This document shows, one piece after another, positions 6,212 to 25,555 of a DNA stretch of 63,499 nucleotides (positions within the stretch are counted from its first letter, which is position 1; each line of letters begins with the position of its first letter). A program made the translations under genes and the position numbers. This DNA is from Candidatus Aenigmatarchaeota archaeon (GTDB lineage Archaea; Aenigmatarchaeota; Aenigmatarchaeia; CG10238-14; SCSR01). The stretch covers positions 1 to 63,499 of the forward strand of contig JAWCSL010000003.1 of NCBI GenBank assembly GCA_039090665.1, written 5' to 3'. A model generated the notes under the pieces. That model was not told the DNA's origin and searched no databases. It was given only the letters and a program-made list of their open reading frames with translations.

Positions 6212-6247
6212 AATTTTACCTTTAGCTAACTACTATTTAAATCTTTA

Positions 6248-6333
6248 TGGGCCTGGAGGGATTCGAACCCTCAACCCGAGGTTTCTTCAAAAAACCGAAG
6301 CCTCGTCGGATATCCAAGTTTCCACACAGGCCC
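6248..6333 (-). tRNA. tRNA-Arg(UCG) with 12-nt intron at 37/38
   Basis: Stem CGAGG/CCTCG; CT-TCG-G, intron TTTTTTGAAGAA; BHB central helix CTTC/GAAG. Confidence 0.9.
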
Positions 6334-6422
6334 AATTAAATAAATTGCTTTTTTGTTTAAAATAAGACTAAGAAGGGAAAACCAATTTACAAAAAATATA
6401 AAAAAAGAAAAAGAAGAGGGAC

Positions 6423-7932: not shown

Positions 7933-8318
7933 CTAAACAAAATTTTAACAAACTCTGTGTAAATTTTTTATTAAAATTTTATTTAAAAGCATTTTTTATG
8001 TTTAAAATATATGATGAAAATTGTATGATAGTGAATTTAAATCGTGCAAACTATTTTTTTCTTTATATATCTTTTAAATCAACATCAGTTATATCACAAA
8101 AATTTTCTAGTTTCTCTTTTTATTTTTGTCAAATAAATCTTCCAAAGCACAACGTGCAATCAAAAATTTTAAAAAATCATGATTTCTTACACTTGAACCT
8201 AACTTAACAAAAATTTTCCTCAAGTTGAGACAGTCTTAATGGATAACTTCTATACAAAATTTTAATTATTCTTGTGCTGTAATCAATTTCTTTCACAATA
8301 GGAAACAAAAAAATTAAG

Positions 8319-8404
8319 CGCCCTCGGTGGGATTCGAACCCACGACCTACCGGTTAACAGCTTCACCCTATTCGTCGGGTGCTCTACCACTGAGCTACGA
8401 GGGC
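8319..8404 (-). tRNA. tRNA-Asn(GUU) with 14-nt non-canonical intron at 30/31
   Basis: Loop CTGTTAA, G73; removing ACGAATAGGGTGAA (8362-8375) restores a 72-nt cloverleaf; BHB central helix CACC/GGTG with 3-nt bulges. Confidence 0.9.
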
Positions 8405-8416
8405 ATTTTTCAATAA

Positions 8417-9706
8417 TCATGGATAAACCCTATTCACTAATCTTGGAAATGCAGTAGCATCTCTTATGTGTTTGAGTTTACAAACCCACATCACCATTCT
8501 TTCAATTCCTAAACCAAAGCCTGCATGCTGAACAGAACCAAATTTTCTTAAATCCAAATACCATTTGTATGCTGAAGGATCTAGTTTTTCTTCTTCTATT
8601 CTCTTCATCAATTCTTCAAAATTTTCAATTCTTTCTCCAGAACCAATTATCTCACCATAGCCTTCTGGAGCAAGCATATCAACACTTAAAGTCACATTAG
8701 GATTGGAAGGGTCTGGTTTATGATAAAATGCTTTTATTCCTTTTGGAAAGTGTGTGACGAAGAAAGGTTTATCGAACTGTAAAGCTAAGACTCTTTCTTC
8801 ATCTGCTCCAAGATCATCCCCATATTCTATTTTTACTCCCTTCTCTTGTAAGAGCCTTATCGCTTCTTCGTATCTTATCCTTGGAAAAGGGGGTTTCATC
8901 CTCAATAACTCTTCAGGATCTCTTCCCAACTCTCTCAATTCTAAGCTACATTCTTTAGCGACTTTTTGTAAAATGAAACTCACAAGCTCTTCTTCAACTT
9001 TCATTAATTCTTCAATGCCACAAAACGGCATTTCAGCTTCTAAATGCCAGAATTCTGTTAAATGCCTTCTTGTTCTTGATTTTTCAGCTCTAAAAGAAGG
9101 AGCTATTGTATAGCACTTACCAAAACCAAAAATCATAGCTTCCCCGTAAAGTTGCCAAGATTGTGTCAGATAAGCTTTTGAATCAAAATATTTTACTTCA
9201 AACAAAGTTGAGCCACCTTCACAAGCAGTTCCAACTATTATCGGAACTTGAACTTCAAGGAAACCATTATCCTTGAACCATTCTCTAGCCGCTTCCAAGA
9301 TTTTGGCTCTAATTCTGAGGATTCGATTCATTTTTTTGCTTCTGATCCAAAAGTGTCTGTTATCCAAAAGAAATTCGGGACCATGGTATTTTTTTCCAAT
9401 CGGAAAACCTTCCATAGCTTTGCTTAACACATTAACTTTTTTTACTGCGATTTCATACCCATAAGGTGCTCTTTCATCTTTTCTTACTGTACCAAAAATT
9501 TCTACTGCCGACTCTAGGGGAAGTCTTTCTATTTCATCAAAAGTTTTTTCATCAACTTGATCTTTTTTCAAAGTACATTGAATGAAACCTGTACCATCTC
9601 TTATTATCAAGAATAAAATTCCACCTGAGCTACGCTTGTTGTGAAGCCAACCTTTTATTTCAACTTCTCCTTCTTCTTTACCTTCTAATATTTTTGAAAT
9701 TTCCAT
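8417..9706 (-). CDS. asnS: Asparaginyl-tRNA synthetase
   Basis: OB-fold N-terminus (GWLHNKRSSG), YLTQSWQLY, RTRRHLTEFWHLEAE, HAGFGLGIER. Confidence 0.94.
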   Translation of the reverse strand: MEISKILEGKEEGEVEIKGWLHNKRSSGGILFLIIRDGTGFIQCTLKKDQVDEKTFDEIERLPLESAVEIFGTVRKDERAPYGYEIAVKKVNVLSKAMEGFPIGKKYHGPEFLLDNRHFWIRSKKMNRILRIRAKILEAAREWFKDNGFLEVQVPIIVGTACEGGSTLFEVKYFDSKAYLTQSWQLYGEAMIFGFGKCYTIAPSFRAEKSRTRRHLTEFWHLEAEMPFCGIEELMKVEEELVSFILQKVAKECSLELRELGRDPEELLRMKPPFPRIRYEEAIRLLQEKGVKIEYGDDLGADEERVLALQFDKPFFVTHFPKGIKAFYHKPDPSNPNVTLSVDMLAPEGYGEIIGSGERIENFEELMKRIEEEKLDPSAYKWYLDLRKFGSVQHAGFGLGIERMVMWVCKLKHIRDATAFPRLVNRVYP

Positions 9707-9744
9707 ACAATCACCTAATTTTGTTTTTTAAAAAAATAAAATAA

Positions 9745-9818
9745 CTGCGGCGGGGAGATTCGAACTCCCATCATCCGGGTAACAGCCAGATATGCTAGCC
9801 TCTTAGCACCACGCCGCT
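9745..9818 (-). tRNA. Atypical tRNA or tRNA-like element: GUU anticodon, Asp-like body, A1-A72 mismatch
   Basis: AGCGGCG TG GTGC TAAGAGGCTA GCAT A TCTGG CTGTTAC CCGGA TGAT GGGAG TTCGAAT CTCCC CGCCGCA G; all four stems form; C38 and 4-nt variable loop. Confidence 0.8.
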
Positions 9819-9898
9819 GTAGCTTAATCCAGGTAGAGAAGCAATTTTCAAGAATTTTTTTGAATCTAATCGAGGCTAGCCAAATCTCAGGATAAGAA

Positions 9899-9931
9899 TC
9901 AACAACTATTGTTTTGGCAATCGCCCCTCAT
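9899..9931 (-). CDS. Putative leader peptide MRGDCQNNSC
   Basis: ATG at 9931 preceded by GGTGAAGGA (SD-like); tandem AAC AAT codons; TGA at 9899-9901. Confidence 0.4.
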   Translation of the reverse strand: MRGDCQNNSC

Positions 9932-9963
9932 TCCTTCACCTTGATTATTTATTTAATTCACAC

Positions 9964-9971
9964 TATTTAAA
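9964..9971 (-). promoter_or_regulatory. Candidate TATA box (TTTAAATA) with purine-rich BRE-like upstream sequence
   Basis: Minus strand AGGAAAATATTTAAATAG, ~25 nt upstream of the GGTGA SD of the micro-ORF. Confidence 0.5.
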
Positions 9972-10064
9972 TATTTTCCTTAATTGGCTATCAGATCAGA
10001 AAATTCTTTTTATTCAAATGCAGACAAATGGGGTGTGATTCTTGGATTTGTATTTTGATCCAAA

Positions 10065-11060
10065 TCAAGGCGAGGCTATTCCAGGAACTTTCGGAAAAGG
10101 AACAGCTTCCCATATTTTTTCCAACCCACAAATCCATCTTGTTAATCTTTCAACACCAATACCAAAACCAGAAGAAGGTGGTATGCCAATTTTCAGCATG
10201 TTTAAATACCACTTGTATTTTTTTGGATCTTCTCCAGTTTTTTTCATCCTTTCAACAACTTTTTTGTATTCATGCTCCCTCTCACCACCAGAAATAACTT
10301 CACCAAAACCTTCTGGTAAAATCAAGTCAAAATCTCTTAGTTTTTTCGTTTTGGGATCTTCAAGATAATAAAAACCTCTTGCTTTGAGGGGATAATCTGT
10401 TATCCATAAAGGTTCAGAACTCTGAGCAGACAAAGCTTCTTCAGCTTCCCATGGAATTTCTTCTTCATCACCCATTTTGAATCCAAGTTTTCTTACAATT
10501 TCAACTACTTGCTCATGAGTAAGTCTTTTGAAAGGAGTTTTTGGAACTTTTAATTTTCTGCCAAAAATTTCCAATTCTTTGAAACATTTCTTTTTCACAT
10601 CTTTTACCAAATAAACAATCATTTTTTCTGCCAAATGCATGGAATCTTCATAAGTAGCATAAGCCTCTTCTAGGTCAATTTGTCTGAATTCTGCTAAATG
10701 TCTTCCAGTTTTTGCAGATTTTTTTGGTTCAATTCTTATGTTTGGTGAAAGTGAAAAGATTTTATGGACAGAAGAGATTGCCATTTGTTTATACAAAATC
10801 ATGCTGCTCATGAGCTTGAACTTCTGGCCGTAAAAATCTATCGTAACTTGTTTAGCTCCTCTAATTCCAGGATCTGTAGCAGGACCTATTATTGGAGCAA
10901 GAATTTCTATGAAGCCTTGTTTCCTCAAAAATTCTCTTATAGCAGATAAAATTTCGTCTTGAATTTTAAGCATAGCAACCATTTTTGGATGTTTTAAGGC
11001 TATGTGTCTGTATTTGATTGATTGGATTGAGTTCAAGTTGCTAATTTCCATTATTATCAC
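10065..11060 (-). CDS. Archaeal asparagine synthetase A (AsnRS paralogue lacking the anticodon-binding domain)
   Basis: Class IIb catalytic core only; SMILYKQMAI, SPNIRIE, GRHLAEF, GEVISGGEREHEY, GFGIGVERL, PFPKVPG; no OB-fold. Confidence 0.9.
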   Translation of the reverse strand: MIIMEISNLNSIQSIKYRHIALKHPKMVAMLKIQDEILSAIREFLRKQGFIEILAPIIGPATDPGIRGAKQVTIDFYGQKFKLMSSMILYKQMAISSVHKIFSLSPNIRIEPKKSAKTGRHLAEFRQIDLEEAYATYEDSMHLAEKMIVYLVKDVKKKCFKELEIFGRKLKVPKTPFKRLTHEQVVEIVRKLGFKMGDEEEIPWEAEEALSAQSSEPLWITDYPLKARGFYYLEDPKTKKLRDFDLILPEGFGEVISGGEREHEYKKVVERMKKTGEDPKKYKWYLNMLKIGIPPSSGFGIGVERLTRWICGLEKIWEAVPFPKVPGIASP

Positions 11061-11095
11061 TAAAGTTTTTATATGGAAGCTGACAAATTAAATTT

Positions 11096-11374
11096 ATGCA
11101 ACCTAGCTTAAAAAAAGTTAAGGCTTTTATTCTTGCTTCTTTTACTTACACACAAAAAGGTAAGTTTTTGGACCAAAAAGAAATTTTAGCACAAATAGCA
11201 AAATTCCCAGAAGTTGAAGAAGCTCACATCATAAGTGGTAATTGGGATATTTTAATAAAAGTTGCTATGAATAGTGTGGATGACATAGGAAAGTTTGTGG
11301 TTGATAAATTAAGAAAAGTTAAAGGAATAGAGAAAACAATAACTTGCATGGTTTTCCAAACTGCAAAAGAGTAA
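11096..11374 (+). CDS. Stand-alone Lrp/AsnC ligand-binding (RAM) domain
   Basis: PEVEEAHIISGNWDILIKV...VVDKLRKVKGIEKTIT; no N-terminal HTH. Confidence 0.85.
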   Translation: MQPSLKKVKAFILASFTYTQKGKFLDQKEILAQIAKFPEVEEAHIISGNWDILIKVAMNSVDDIGKFVVDKLRKVKGIEKTITCMVFQTAKE

Positions 11375-11380
11375 ATGTTT

Positions 11381-11680
11381 TCAAACCTCTTCCTCTGGAG
11401 CTTCCTCTGGAATTTCCTCTGGAATTTCTGGTGTGGGTATGTGTTTTATTATCACTATATCACCCACAGCTTGAACCATCGGGTAAGGAACTATTACTCC
11501 TTTCTTTCCACCCAAAGCTTTGCCCAAAAAACCTTCTCTTGCAGCTTCTATAAGCAAGCTTCTTATCTTGAATCTTGCTAGGTCAAGCTCAACATCCGAA
11601 ACCTTACCACAGTAAAAACCTTTTGTAGTGAAGACATCTTTGCCAAACAAATCAGCAATGTCTTTAACATTAAGTGGCAT
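11381..11680 (-). CDS. PRC-barrel domain protein (CdpB-like)
   Basis: GKDVFTTKGFYCGKVSDVELD...IVPYPMVQAVGDIVII; acidic PEE-repeat tail. Confidence 0.85.
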   Translation of the reverse strand: MPLNVKDIADLFGKDVFTTKGFYCGKVSDVELDLARFKIRSLLIEAAREGFLGKALGGKKGVIVPYPMVQAVGDIVIIKHIPTPEIPEEIPEEAPEEEV

Positions 11681-11748
11681 TTTTACATCCTCCTAATAAA
11701 TTGTGGGTTTTAATATTAAATAAACTTTTGTGTATAAATTATTTTAGT

Positions 11749-11844
11749 GCCTAGGTGGCCGAATCTGGTTAAGGCGCCAGTCTGCTAAAGTTGTAGAGAG
11801 CTGGTGGTCGTAAGACCGTGTGGGTTCAAATCCCACCCTAGGCG
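11749..11844 (+). tRNA. tRNA-Ser(GCU) with 11-nt intron at 37/38
   Basis: Stem CCAGT/GCTGG; CT-GCT-A, intron AAGTTGTAGAG; BHB helix CTGC/GTAG; long variable arm. Confidence 0.9.
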
Positions 11845-11935
11845 TATTTTTTCTTTGTTTATTGAGAAAGAAATTTCCCCCTTCTTAATCAAATTTTTAA
11901 TTTTCCCCACCCTTAAAACTATTTTAGTGAGTTCA

Positions 11936-12445
11936 ATGAACTATTTGATGATTATCTTCCTTTTCTTTATTTTGTACTTCTGGATAAGGTTGATTTTTGA
12001 CGAGGCAATTTATGTTCCTTTACCAACTTCAACTATAAGAAAAATGCTCAAGCTTGCTAAAGTCAGCAAAAAAGATTTGCTCTATGATTTGGGAGCAGGA
12101 GACGGAAGAGTTGTGATAATAGCTGCGAAAGAATTTGGTTGTAAAGCTGTTGGCATAGAAAGAAGTGCTTTGCTTGCTGCAATTTGCAGGTGGAGAATTA
12201 AAAGAGCAGGCTTGCAAGATAAAATCAAGATCATAGAGAAAAATTACTTTGATGTTAACTTGAGTAAGGCTACAGTGGTAACAGCTTACCTATCAAAAAA
12301 GCAAAATGAAAAGCTTGTGCCAAAGTTGAAGAAAGAATTGAAGAAAGGAACAAGAGTAGTTTCTGCATCTCATATTTTTCCTGGACTGAAAGAAGTGAAA
12401 AGAATAAAAACAGGGCACTTTTATTCTTATTTATACAAGATTTAA
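11936..12445 (+). CDS. Class I SAM methyltransferase with N-terminal TM anchor (FAM173-like)
   Basis: IYVPLP, YDLGAGDGRVV, ATVVTAYL, GTRVVS. Start moved to ATG 11936 because the track start overlaps tRNA-Ser. Confidence 0.82.
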   Translation: MNYLMIIFLFFILYFWIRLIFDEAIYVPLPTSTIRKMLKLAKVSKKDLLYDLGAGDGRVVIIAAKEFGCKAVGIERSALLAAICRWRIKRAGLQDKIKIIEKNYFDVNLSKATVVTAYLSKKQNEKLVPKLKKELKKGTRVVSASHIFPGLKEVKRIKTGHFYSYLYKI

Positions 12446-12479
12446 TTTTTTTATAGAGAGTCAACAATTTTTTATTAAA

Positions 12480-12550
12480 GGGTCCGTAGTCTAACGGTAG
12501 GACGTCACCCTGACACGGTGAAGGAAGGAGTTCGACTCTCCTCGGACCCA
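12480..12550 (+). tRNA. tRNA-Val(GAC)
   Basis: GGGTCCG/CGGACCC, stem TCACC/GGTGA, loop CTGACAC. Confidence 0.94.
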
Positions 12551-12655
12551 CTTACAAAAACAGCAAAGATAAATTTTACGATTTTACAGAAGAATGGTTA
12601 ATTTCTAGAAATTTTTGTTCTATCAGTAACACTCAAAAGGTTATCTATTTTTAAA

Positions 12656-12742
12656 AGCCCCAGGCGGGATTTGCACCCGCGACCTCATGCTTACCACGCT
12701 TGCGCAATTCTTATGCGCTCTAGCTAGCTGAGCTACTGGGGC
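12656..12742 (-). tRNA. tRNA-Thr(GGU) with 13-nt intron at 29/30 and atypical elbow
   Basis: GCCCCAG/CTGGGGC, U73; removing AAGAATTGCGCAA (12700-12712) restores CATGC/GCATG; loop GTGGTAA; T-loop TGCAAAT. Confidence 0.8.
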
Positions 12743-25376: not shown

Positions 25377-25555
25377 GAATTGGCATGGGTCAATGAGAAA
25401 GGGCGAGACTAACCCCTAAGAGGTATTCTGATAGATCGACACCGGTTTAAGGTCTCCGTCCCCTCAACATTGAGAATGAACTGGAGAATTGAAAAATCGA
25501 CACCGGTATGTAAATCTAATTCTTCCGTTCCTCGAATTTCTCATTGACTCAATTC
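25377..25555 (+). ncRNA. Candidate structured RNA upstream of lysW with twin AUCG-ACAC-CGGU hairpins
   Basis: 14-bp closing stem 25387-25400/25537-25550; ATCGACACCGGT at 25435 and 25496; G-U pairs favour the + strand. Confidence 0.6.

Follow-up and report, generated by a model that had tools for sequence, protein, structure and literature searches.

Short leader open reading frames with a cognate codon precede asnS and valS of an Aenigmatarchaeote and may report tRNA charging

Ribosome-mediated attenuators are familiar from the trp, his and leu leaders of bacteria and, for a synthetase, from pheM, the leader of pheST in Escherichia coli. In the T-boxes of Gram-positive bacteria, uncharged tRNA is bound directly by a structured, untranslated RNA of ~200 nt, and in the tRNA-mimic autoregulation of E. 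coli thrS, ThrRS binds an operator that overlaps the ribosome-binding site. To our knowledge, the post-initiation regulation of archaeal genes is almost unknown, and we know of no mechanism described for archaea that adjusts the levels of synthetases to tRNA charging. Leaderless short open reading frames (ORFs) of mycobacteria are described in a preprint as cysteine-responsive attenuators of downstream operon genes (bioRxiv 10.1101/834739), and according to a paper of 2021 no attenuation or antitermination is known in archaea (PMC8448881). Our full-text search of the literature found no report of an archaeal asnS leader or of archaeal leader-peptide attenuation. Here we describe the region upstream of asnS, the gene for asparaginyl-tRNA synthetase (AsnRS), in a 63.5-kb stretch (63,499 nt, ~35% G+C) of contig JAWCSL010000003.1 from an Aenigmatarchaeote (DPANN); this whole stretch is called the window, and coordinates are those of its minus strand unless marked (+). 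At this asparagine locus, whose 5' leader the region forms, the order is upstream ORF (uORF), tRNA-Asn-like gene (designated tRNA*), asnS and canonical tRNA-Asn, and a sister leader precedes valS, the gene for valyl-tRNA synthetase (ValRS). We put at roughly 0.55 the probability that this leader is a cognate-codon, ribosome-sensed element for synthetase genes, which would pause the ribosome when the charged tRNA is short.

The asnS loci compared with the window (designated by L numbers) were collected from species-representative genomes and metagenomes, and ten more were added by protein search and contig look-ups. The motif GGY-GRN-YGY-(CAA or TTT)-AAY is found 85-220 nt before asnS in all 48 loci that encode an AsnRS at least 61% identical and that have enough upstream DNA, and also in every one of ten additional relatives (AsnRS 69-85% identical). 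The motif-positive loci belong to Aenigmatarchaeota of hot springs and sediments and to many GC-rich Bathyarchaeia. The motif was not found within 450 nt upstream in ~50 loci with enough upstream DNA and an AsnRS at most 57% identical, nor was any Asn-codon uORF found within 260 nt upstream of distant asnS genes (40-57% identity). The distinct leaders analysed number 46, of which 21 are AT-rich and 25 Bathyarchaeal; they are not 46 independent events, because many of the Bathyarchaeal ones are closely related. All 46 possess an in-frame ATG, GTG or TTG start behind a Shine-Dalgarno (SD) sequence and a first in-frame stop 3-21 nt past the Asn codon; the non-uORF frames reach a stop after a median of 17-145 nt, the 17 nt being that of one frame in the AT-rich group. 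The sensor codon is AAC in 26 leaders and AAT in the other 20 and is never another codon, codon 6 before it is TTT or CAA, the residue that follows it is free (N, S, L, F, R, P, D, V, T or A), and the distance from the start to the motif differs by whole codons only. Compared with MRGDCQNNSC of the window, the predicted leader peptides of relatives include MKGGCQNNSN, VKGDCQNDI, LRGGRQNNS, LGDRQNFRA, MKGECFNFL, MKGGRFNSA, MGVWQNF and MVGRQNN, and those of Bathyarchaeia include MIGERFNSD, MTGERFNLG and MGERFNPC. Upstream of the uORF, the TTTAAAT of the TATA box is invariant and stands at the same distance from the uORF SD in the asnS leaders of both clades and in the valS leader; from this spacing alone, transcription would start near 9942, ~23 nt downstream of the box. 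The GGTG of the uORF SD is invariant in alignment A1, and its spacing to the ATG equals that of the asnS SD. Taken together, the uORF before asnS is a conserved and very probably translated leader ORF with a cognate Asn codon.

The initial annotation of the region had read it as an attenuator-like leader, with a TATA box, an SD, a uORF with tandem AAC-AAT codons, a 9-mer complementary to tRNA*, the sequence CCTGGAT (9833-9827), a U7 tract and the SD of asnS, all of which are present in the sequence. Conservation of the uORF, on which this interpretation depended, is borne out by the in-frame start, the stop and the Asn at a fixed codon in 46 of 46 leaders. Of the tandem Asn codons, the first is invariant (46/46), and the pair is found in 12 of the 21 AT-rich leaders and in none of the Bathyarchaeal ones. 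Because only the first Asn codon is invariant and the residue after it is free, the tandem is not the conserved feature. The end of the uORF is conserved in a manner of its own. Most AT-rich leaders keep an in-frame stop-GAT-TTG even behind an earlier stop, and Bathyarchaeal leaders have UAG-UUC-UAG or CAG-UUC-UAG in frame. In both clades, UUC (or UCC or UUU) followed by a stop is kept in the uORF frame, often as the second stop, which suggests that ribosomes must not enter the RNA segment that follows, termed region 2 below.

Several observations concern the distribution and variants of the uORF. The asnS uORF at L119:2420-2500 (MVGRQNN) lacks an SD and starts ~21 nt past a TATA-like box, so that leaderless translation is possible there. 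In L033, a distant Aenigmatarchaeote whose AsnRS is 47% identical, a pair formed by an AsnRS-core paralogue and asnS is preceded by two tandem Q-N uORFs, MGGRQNLGQKI (L033:1830-1865) and MKGEGQN (L033:2010-2033); MKGEGQN stops right after its Asn codon. The leader-bearing asnS clade is common to Bathyarchaeia (L006-L011 and others) and only some Aenigmatarchaeota (61-66% identity), and other Aenigmatarchaeota, such as L015 and L033, encode AsnRS of 47-52% identity. Archaeal-type AsnRS (49-64% identity) is also found in records labelled Gemmatimonadota, Thermodesulfobacteriota, Planctomycetales and [Eubacterium] cellulosolvens, which could reflect transfer or mis-binning.

The arrangement of TATA box, SD, short ORF and long ORF with the motif is found at two sites in the window, and both precede synthetase genes. 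In the leader of valS, the module, which begins ATGAAGGGCGATCGT, carries GTA (Val) where the asnS leaders have the invariant Asn, and the first five codons of the valS and asnS uORFs have 13 of 16 nt in common (ATGARGGGCGATYGYC). The regulatory codons expected of leader-peptide attenuators are thus present in both leaders, Asn before asnS and Val at the equivalent codon before valS. When both strands of the window were scanned, the exact motif of the module was found nowhere else, and a relaxed scan of the window returned one more weak match at 25393 (+) with no long ORF near it. Besides asnS and valS, no full synthetase gene was found among the larger ORFs of the window, and a scan of the collected relatives' loci for class I synthetase motifs yielded bacterial LeuRS only. 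The gene directly after valS (53939-52713) encodes aRF1. The Val-codon leader before valS strengthens the reading of the leader as a putative reporter of cognate tRNA charging.

The same data bear on an explanation in which no amino acid is sensed and the Asn and Val codons are coincidental, the leader being either an operator, in DNA or RNA, of a regulator shared by synthetase genes or a constitutive leader ORF that serves only to load ribosomes or to stabilise the 5' end. Conservation at the nucleotide level would suit such an element, as GGTGAGCGCTTTAAY is near-invariant in Bathyarchaeia, third codon positions included; the interchange of Cys and Arg at codon 5 (TGY/CGY) is odd for a constraint on the peptide, and no structural switch was found. 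An operator, however, needs no SD-led in-frame start, no length changes by whole codons and no in-frame stops with back-ups, which are found in 46 of 46 leaders. Moreover, both synthetase leaders of the window and all asnS leaders have a cognate codon at the fixed position, AAC and AAT replace each other freely, and the later codons are unconstrained. We consider this explanation improbable.

The other fixed part of the putative sensor is an internal SD-like motif, GGYGR, formed by a Gly codon and an Asp, Glu or Gly codon, which resembles the SDs of the locus: AGGTGA-TTGT-ATG at asnS compares with GGCGA-TTGC-CAA-AAC in the uORF. Its pairing was computed with GAUCACCUCCU, which is an assumed consensus archaeal anti-SD and not the organism's own 16S 3' end. 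Along the 46 leaders, two minima of pairing energy were found, one at the true SD (-5.5 to -6.4 kcal/mol) and the other 12-14 nt before the sensor codon (-6.4 to -8.4 kcal/mol), the latter being -6.6 kcal/mol for the AT-rich leaders, -8.2 for those of Bathyarchaeia and -8.4 for that of valS. For both clades and the valS leader, this assumed anti-SD is thus predicted to pair with the internal motif as strongly as with the true SD or more strongly. The motif is followed by the same 4-nt spacing that follows GGTGA at the starts of asnS and the uORF; by this geometry, a ribosome held at the motif would have codon 6 in its P site and the sensor codon in its A site. The comparison thus documents a uORF, an invariant cognate codon, an SD-like motif at fixed spacing, the placement of the stops and a link to two synthetase genes (Table 1).

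TABLE 1. Positions of the asnS and valS leader elements and of the associated genes in the window.
Feature	Position	Strand	Description
asnS leader TATA box	9971-9964	-	TTTAAATA; read from the sequence
uORF SD region	9940-9933	-	GGTGAAGG; SD proper GGTGA 9940-9936, 4-nt spacer, ATG
asnS uORF	9931-9899 (including stop)	-	ATG AGG GGC GAT TGC CAA AAC AAT AGT TGT TGA = MRGDCQNNSC, 10 codons; ATG 9931-9929
Internal SD-like motif	9925-9921	-	GGCGA (codons 3-4; family GGYGR); 4 nt before codon 6, 7 nt before the Asn codon
Sensor codon	9913-9911	-	AAC (Asn, codon 7); invariant Asn
Neighbouring Asn codon	9910-9908	-	AAT; unconserved
First stop of the uORF	9901-9899	-	TGA
Second in-frame stop	9889-9887	-	TGA; 2 nt before UUUGG
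P1 5' strand	9927-9923 and 9918-9913	-	GGGGC and GCCAAA; inside the uORF; pair with 9876-9872 and 9884-9879, respectively (RNAalifold)
Region 2 (P1 3' strand)	9884-9872	-	TTTGGC-TA-GCCTC; TTTGGC 9884-9879, GCCTC 9876-9872
9-mer	9880-9872	-	GCTAGCCTC; exact reverse complement of GAGGCTAGC (9802-9794, tRNA* D-arm); lies in the P1 3' strand
A7 tract	9861-9855	-	conserved 10-20 nt past region 2 in AT-rich leaders (alignments)
tRNA*	9818-9745 (our reading); 9819-9744 (ARAGORN)	-	tRNA-Asn(GUU)-like gene in the asnS leader; Rfam tRNA RF00005, 39 bits
U4 + U7 tract	9741-9730	-	T4 9741-9738, T7 9736-9730; archaeal terminator-type signal after tRNA*
asnS SD	9716-9711	-	AGGTGA, then TTGT spacer and ATG at 9706
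asnS	9706-8417	-	asparaginyl-tRNA synthetase, 429 aa; Pfam tRNA-synt_2 and OB anticodon-binding domain; homologues named asparagine--tRNA ligase
Canonical tRNA-Asn(GUU)	8404-8318	-	13 nt after asnS; Rfam 56.5 bits; 14-nt intron at a non-canonical anticodon-stem site
AsnRS-core paralogue	11060-10065	-	Pfam tRNA-synt_2 only; no anticodon-binding domain
valS leader TATA box	56446-56439	-	TTTAAATT
valS leader SD	56415-56412	-	GAGG
valS uORF	56408-56379	-	ATG AAG GGC GAT CGT CGG GTA CAG CTT TGA = MKGDRRVQL; 51 nt before the valS ATG
valS uORF internal SD-like motif	56402-56398	-	GGCGA
valS uORF Val codon	56390-56388	-	GTA
valS	56327-53997	-	NCBIfam NF009687, 940 bits (cut-off 738)

For a leader RNA that could respond to a waiting ribosome, a candidate structure is the helix P1, in which codons 2-3 and 5-6 of the uORF pair with region 2 as predicted by RNAalifold on eight leaders of the window's clade. 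With 15 leaders, RNAalifold retains the 5-bp segment, 73 of its 75 cells being paired, with AU in 11 and GC in 4 leaders at one pair; on alignment A2, 96% and 94% of the cells in the two halves are paired, and each half has one compensatory change from G:C to A:U. Comparison thus lends P1 modest support. In Bathyarchaeia, most leaders permit a comparable pairing of GGUGAGCGCUUUAA with a segment 19-26 nt past the Asn codon; it is insignificant against shuffles and absent from the RNAalifold prediction. In terms of the alternating segments of a classical attenuator, the 1:2 pairing (P1) has modest support and a 2:3 pairing is plausible in the window only.

The 2:3 pairing in question is that on which the initial annotation had built its switch: a ribosome stalled at the tandem Asn codons would free GCUAGCCUC (9880-9872) for pairing with the D-arm of tRNA* (9802-9794), the tRNA would misfold, its acceptor stem and the U tract would cease to stop transcription, and read-through into asnS would rise. 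The complement is exact in the window (9 of 9; P ~0.014 by shuffling), and the minimum-free-energy structure of 9945-9700 uses it. The 9-mer is also part of the 3' strand of P1 and could alternate between uORF and tRNA, which is the topology that attenuators need, and the conserved SD of asnS is too near to tRNA* for an intervening promoter, so that the SD-bearing mRNA would come from upstream. As a chance event, the complement by itself is weak evidence: a match of at least 9 nt occurs in 1.4% of leader shuffles, and the window has 102 nine-mer inverted seeds no more than 150 nt apart. The match is perfect in the window only, with 5-8 of the 9 pairs kept in ten relatives; six of the 11 copies have lost the central pair and three the first, and L117 and L120 have uninterrupted runs of just 4 and 3 pairs. 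The check for covariation that the annotation had suggested yielded a single compensatory pair (C:G to U:A on both sides), and this pair covaries with codon 2 of the uORF, too. Duplex energies of leader against tRNA are no better than those of shuffles, in a comparison in which RNAduplex gave unrealistic duplexes with long partners, and the 9-mer region pairs with the uORF at least as well as with the D-arm. Furthermore, the uORF persists without an upstream tRNA, as does region 2 in L012 and L114-L116 (L004 retains the UUUGGC part only); the valS leader has no tRNA, the Asn pair is unconserved, and archaeal termination needs no hairpin (PMC8716108). The anti-tRNA 9-mer of the annotation is real in the window and has the uORF as an alternative partner, and the switch built on it is unlikely.

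Other RNA elements were considered and rejected. A scan of 8200-12700 for the T-box (RF00230) or any other Rfam family (E <= 1) returned only tRNA and chance-level matches, and a T-box-like pairing of UGGC with the 3' end of tRNA was dismissed by eye, UGGC being present in about half of the leaders. For a C/D box small RNA, a good C box was seen by eye only in L001 (GTGATGA), CUGA is lost in L001 and L003, and the boxes do not face each other across P1. The geometry at the base of P1, also judged by eye, is unsuitable for a kink-turn.

The tRNA-Asn-like gene between the uORF and asnS is a feature of part of the family. Beside the window, its loci are L001-L003, L035-L038, L073, L117, L118, L120 and L122; tRNA* is found in 12 loci with 11 distinct sequences and AsnRS identity down to 69%. 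It has the Rfam cloverleaf with covarying stems, scoring 39 bits in the window (gathering score 29) and 40-54 bits in seven related copies, the copy of L120 not being listed above the gathering score; the acceptor, anticodon and T stems have compensatory changes. It lacks universal features of elongator tRNAs, namely a paired 1:72 and A14: in none of the 11 copies can A1 and A72 pair, U or C stands at position 14, and G73 is the discriminator. In contrast, the canonical tRNA-Asn (GCCCUCG..., G1:C72, A14), which follows asnS in those Aenigmatarchaeota loci that are readable there, scores 72-76 bits where it is intron-less (L001, L012, L036, L038, L113, L117 and L121), and tRNA* scores 18-37 bits lower. 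The canonical gene has an intron of different sequence at the same site as in the window in L114, L116, L120 and L035 and an intron after the anticodon in L115, and L012 seemingly has a decayed remnant of tRNA*, as judged by eye. The uORF occurs without an upstream tRNA in L012, L113-L116, L119, L121, L004/L005, L103 and all Bathyarchaeia. Judged from these patterns of substitution and distribution, tRNA* is a selected, structured molecule in the leader of one branch and not a universal partner of the uORF; it could be an isoacceptor, a decoy for AsnRS or the substrate of another enzyme.

Were tRNA* a decoy, excess AsnRS would bind it and lower its own synthesis, and the uORF would be separate or accessory. 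The AsnRS identity set, which we take to be the GUU anticodon and G73, is carried by tRNA* in full. Its deviations at universal positions (A1/A72 never paired, U or C at 14), its bit-score deficit relative to the canonical tRNA and its location 28 nt before the asnS SD with no consistent promoter of its own, as judged by eye, would also suit a mimic. On the other hand, tRNA* is present in only part of the leader-bearing clade and lies clear of the ribosome-binding site, a terminator-type U tract stands after it as after an ordinary tRNA gene, and its covarying stems suit a working tRNA equally. The valS and Bathyarchaeal leaders would also be left unexplained, and we regard autoregulation by a tRNA mimic as quite unlikely.

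In another explanation, the locus consists of separate, ordinary units: the upstream promoter would make just a small RNA and tRNA*, ending at the U tract, and asnS would be transcribed from its own promoter in the A/T-rich 9744-9724, the genes being clustered and not controlled together. Archaeal termination relies on U tracts and aCPSF1/FttA, and in Methanococcus maripaludis both the binding of the termination factor aCPSF1 and the efficiency of termination were highest for transcripts with two U4 tracts (PMC8716108). A U4 and a U7 tract stand directly after tRNA* in the window, and a T tract follows tRNA* in all relatives; TATA-like A/T runs are found 17-38 nt before the ATG of asnS, and a TTTATAAA box lies 29-36 nt before that of valS. 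Set against this, a TATA box centred at ~9733 would start the RNA at about the ATG and would omit the SD of asnS, which is kept in all relatives (GGTGA or GTGA 4-6 nt before the start in all AT-rich ones); the SD-bearing asnS mRNA would therefore come from upstream. The leader, moreover, stays with asnS where there is no tRNA and in the GC-rich Bathyarchaeia. The U tracts are confined to AT-rich leaders: the Bathyarchaeal leaders have no tRNA, 18 of the 25 have no T run of four or more, and 20 of the 25 lack an A/T-rich 8-mer between uORF and asnS. Because of the lack of such a box in these 20, the Bathyarchaeal uORF must be on the asnS mRNA. A division into separate units is in our view very doubtful.

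Based on the features of the leader, we propose a mechanism in which the functional core consists of an SD and start of its own, the internal SD-like GGYGR at codons 3-4, two spacer codons and one cognate codon. The first ribosome behind RNA polymerase would be held by pairing of its anti-SD to the internal motif, its P site then at codon 6 and its A site at the cognate codon. When charged tRNA-Asn is scarce, the ribosome would wait at the cognate codon, cover the 5' strand of P1 (9927-9913) and follow the polymerase closely during the synthesis of the pyrimidine/U-rich stretch and region 2; the waiting would favour continued transcription or use of the downstream message, leading to more AsnRS, tRNA* and tRNA-Asn. 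When charged tRNA-Asn is plentiful, the ribosome would reach the first stop, or the second as a back-up, and leave, upon which P1 would close and more transcripts would end or stay silent. We infer the stalling of the ribosome and, above all, the output step, which may be termination, processing or translation. What stands of the attenuator proposed by the initial annotation is thus a conserved cognate-codon leader that may be able to report tRNA-Asn charging; the tandem Asn codons and the pairing of the 9-mer with the D-arm are not supported as its working parts.

A number of results weigh against a ribosome-sensed leader. All organisms that bear the leader are uncultured and were compared by sequence. 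The single invariant cognate codon differs from the runs found in classical attenuators. The valS leader is known from a single species: the 8 contigs with enough upstream DNA encode identical ValRS, and because their leaders are identical they add nothing on conservation. Most of the AT-rich SD-like motifs have GGC and not GGU, which is a mismatch to the anti-SD, and the assumed consensus anti-SD may not match the 16S of the host. Ribosome pausing at internal SD-like motifs is disputed in bacteria and, as far as we know, has never been tested in archaea. The helix P1 is short and weak (consensus energy -3.6 kcal/mol on 15 leaders), the valS leader has no clear counterpart of it, and RNAalifold on 24 Bathyarchaeal leaders found almost no consensus structure, with a weak 5' hairpin of -5.2 kcal/mol. 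Duplexes of the uORF with the downstream leader (RNAduplex) are only weakly better than shuffles (mean z -0.74; p <= 0.05 in 7 of 36); their register is consistent, whereas single sequences lack significance. A translational switch was tried and rejected: folding 36 leaders with a ribosome blocking the uORF, as the initial annotation had proposed, left the predicted accessibility of the asnS SD unchanged at 0.39 in the free leader, 0.41 with a ribosome at the Asn codon and 0.41 with one at the stop. A scan for bacterial-type promoters and terminators found no terminator hairpin, and no conserved pair of terminator and antiterminator was found among the leaders. Lastly, with its strong U4 + U7 tract and the A/T-rich boxes between tRNA* and asnS, the window may have an independent asnS promoter.

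The nearest AsnRS genes are those of hot-spring metagenome-assembled genomes of Candidatus Aenigmatarchaeota, and AsnRS and ValRS identical to those of the window are encoded on a 93,865-bp contig of GCA_044343605.1; further contigs that encode identical proteins stem from samples such as JGI 3300022544. The AsnRS-core paralogue matches 1x54 AsnRS (4.6e-58), 1nnh and 3p8t (archaeal asparagine synthetase A) in the PDB and is probably an asparagine synthetase of the archaeal AsnA type. It adjoins a divergent 92-aa protein that consists solely of an Lrp/AsnC ligand-binding domain (11096-11374 (+)), and the two form an 'asparagine island' (10065-11374) directly upstream of the leader, tRNA*, asnS and tRNA-Asn. 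Several tRNA genes of the window (6247-6334, 11748-11845 and others) are intron-bearing or are given odd anticodons by ARAGORN, and the tRNA-Ser at 11748-11845 overlaps the start of a mechanically listed DOT1-like methyltransferase ORF (11804-12445).

At slightly less than even odds, we offer a broader proposal: archaea of at least two phyla may control synthetases by a modular leader ORF (SD, start, SD-like tether, two spacer codons and one cognate codon) in which a codon swap retargets the sensor, from Asn before asnS to Val before valS, and to which one branch of Aenigmatarchaeota has added a mismatched tRNA-Asn-like gene as part of the switch or as a co-regulated product. If true, Archaea would have in it their first ribosome-mediated system of attenuation or antitermination, and bacterial T-boxes their functional counterpart. 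A fixed codon that matches the downstream synthetase, as observed for two amino acids within a single genome and, in the case of asnS, across two phyla, would be a concrete and testable answer to the question of how archaea match synthetase levels to charging. Because the module is short (~45 nt), it could be transferred to reporters in tractable archaea, where its specificity would be expected to switch upon the swap of a single codon and where it would allow a natural test of the positioning of archaeal ribosomes by internal SD-like sequences. The leader also draws attention to an unusual, conserved tRNA-Asn-like molecule with an A1/A72 mismatch.

Compared with the described systems, the uORF module looks like an amino-acid-sensing leader of the bacterial attenuator kind. 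As in bacterial attenuators, a short leader ORF with its own ribosome-binding site has codons for the amino acid of the downstream gene, and its stop lies just before an RNA segment that is able to pair with the leader-ORF region. Unlike them, the archaeal leader has one invariant cognate codon, which an internal SD-like motif precedes at fixed spacing, a conserved pair of hairpin-plus-U terminator and antiterminator was not found in it, and its host terminates transcription independently of hairpins (PMC8716108). The mycobacterial cysteine leaders, as the preprint presents them, likewise have a short upstream ORF, rich in the codons of one amino acid, and require no classical hairpin switch; they are bacterial and leaderless and have several Cys codons, whereas the asnS uORF is SD-led (in L119 perhaps leaderless), has a single sensor codon and belongs to a leader family that precedes synthetase genes (bioRxiv 10.1101/834739). 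The logic resembles that of T-boxes, as synthetase genes would respond to the charging of the cognate tRNA via a leader codon; the mechanism differs in that the uORF here would be translated. As in the thrS operator, the 5' region of a synthetase gene holds a tRNA-like structure with the cognate anticodon, here tRNA*; unlike that operator, tRNA* is a complete, tRNA-sized cloverleaf, is located 28 nt upstream of the SD with a U tract behind it and is present in part of the family only. By analogy, the thrS operator would be the nearest counterpart of tRNA*, and the pheST leader and the mycobacterial cysteine leaders the closest counterparts of the uORF. The principle of a leader ORF with cognate codons is familiar; the module of a single codon and an SD-like tether, the archaeal domain and the embedded, mismatched tRNA are new.

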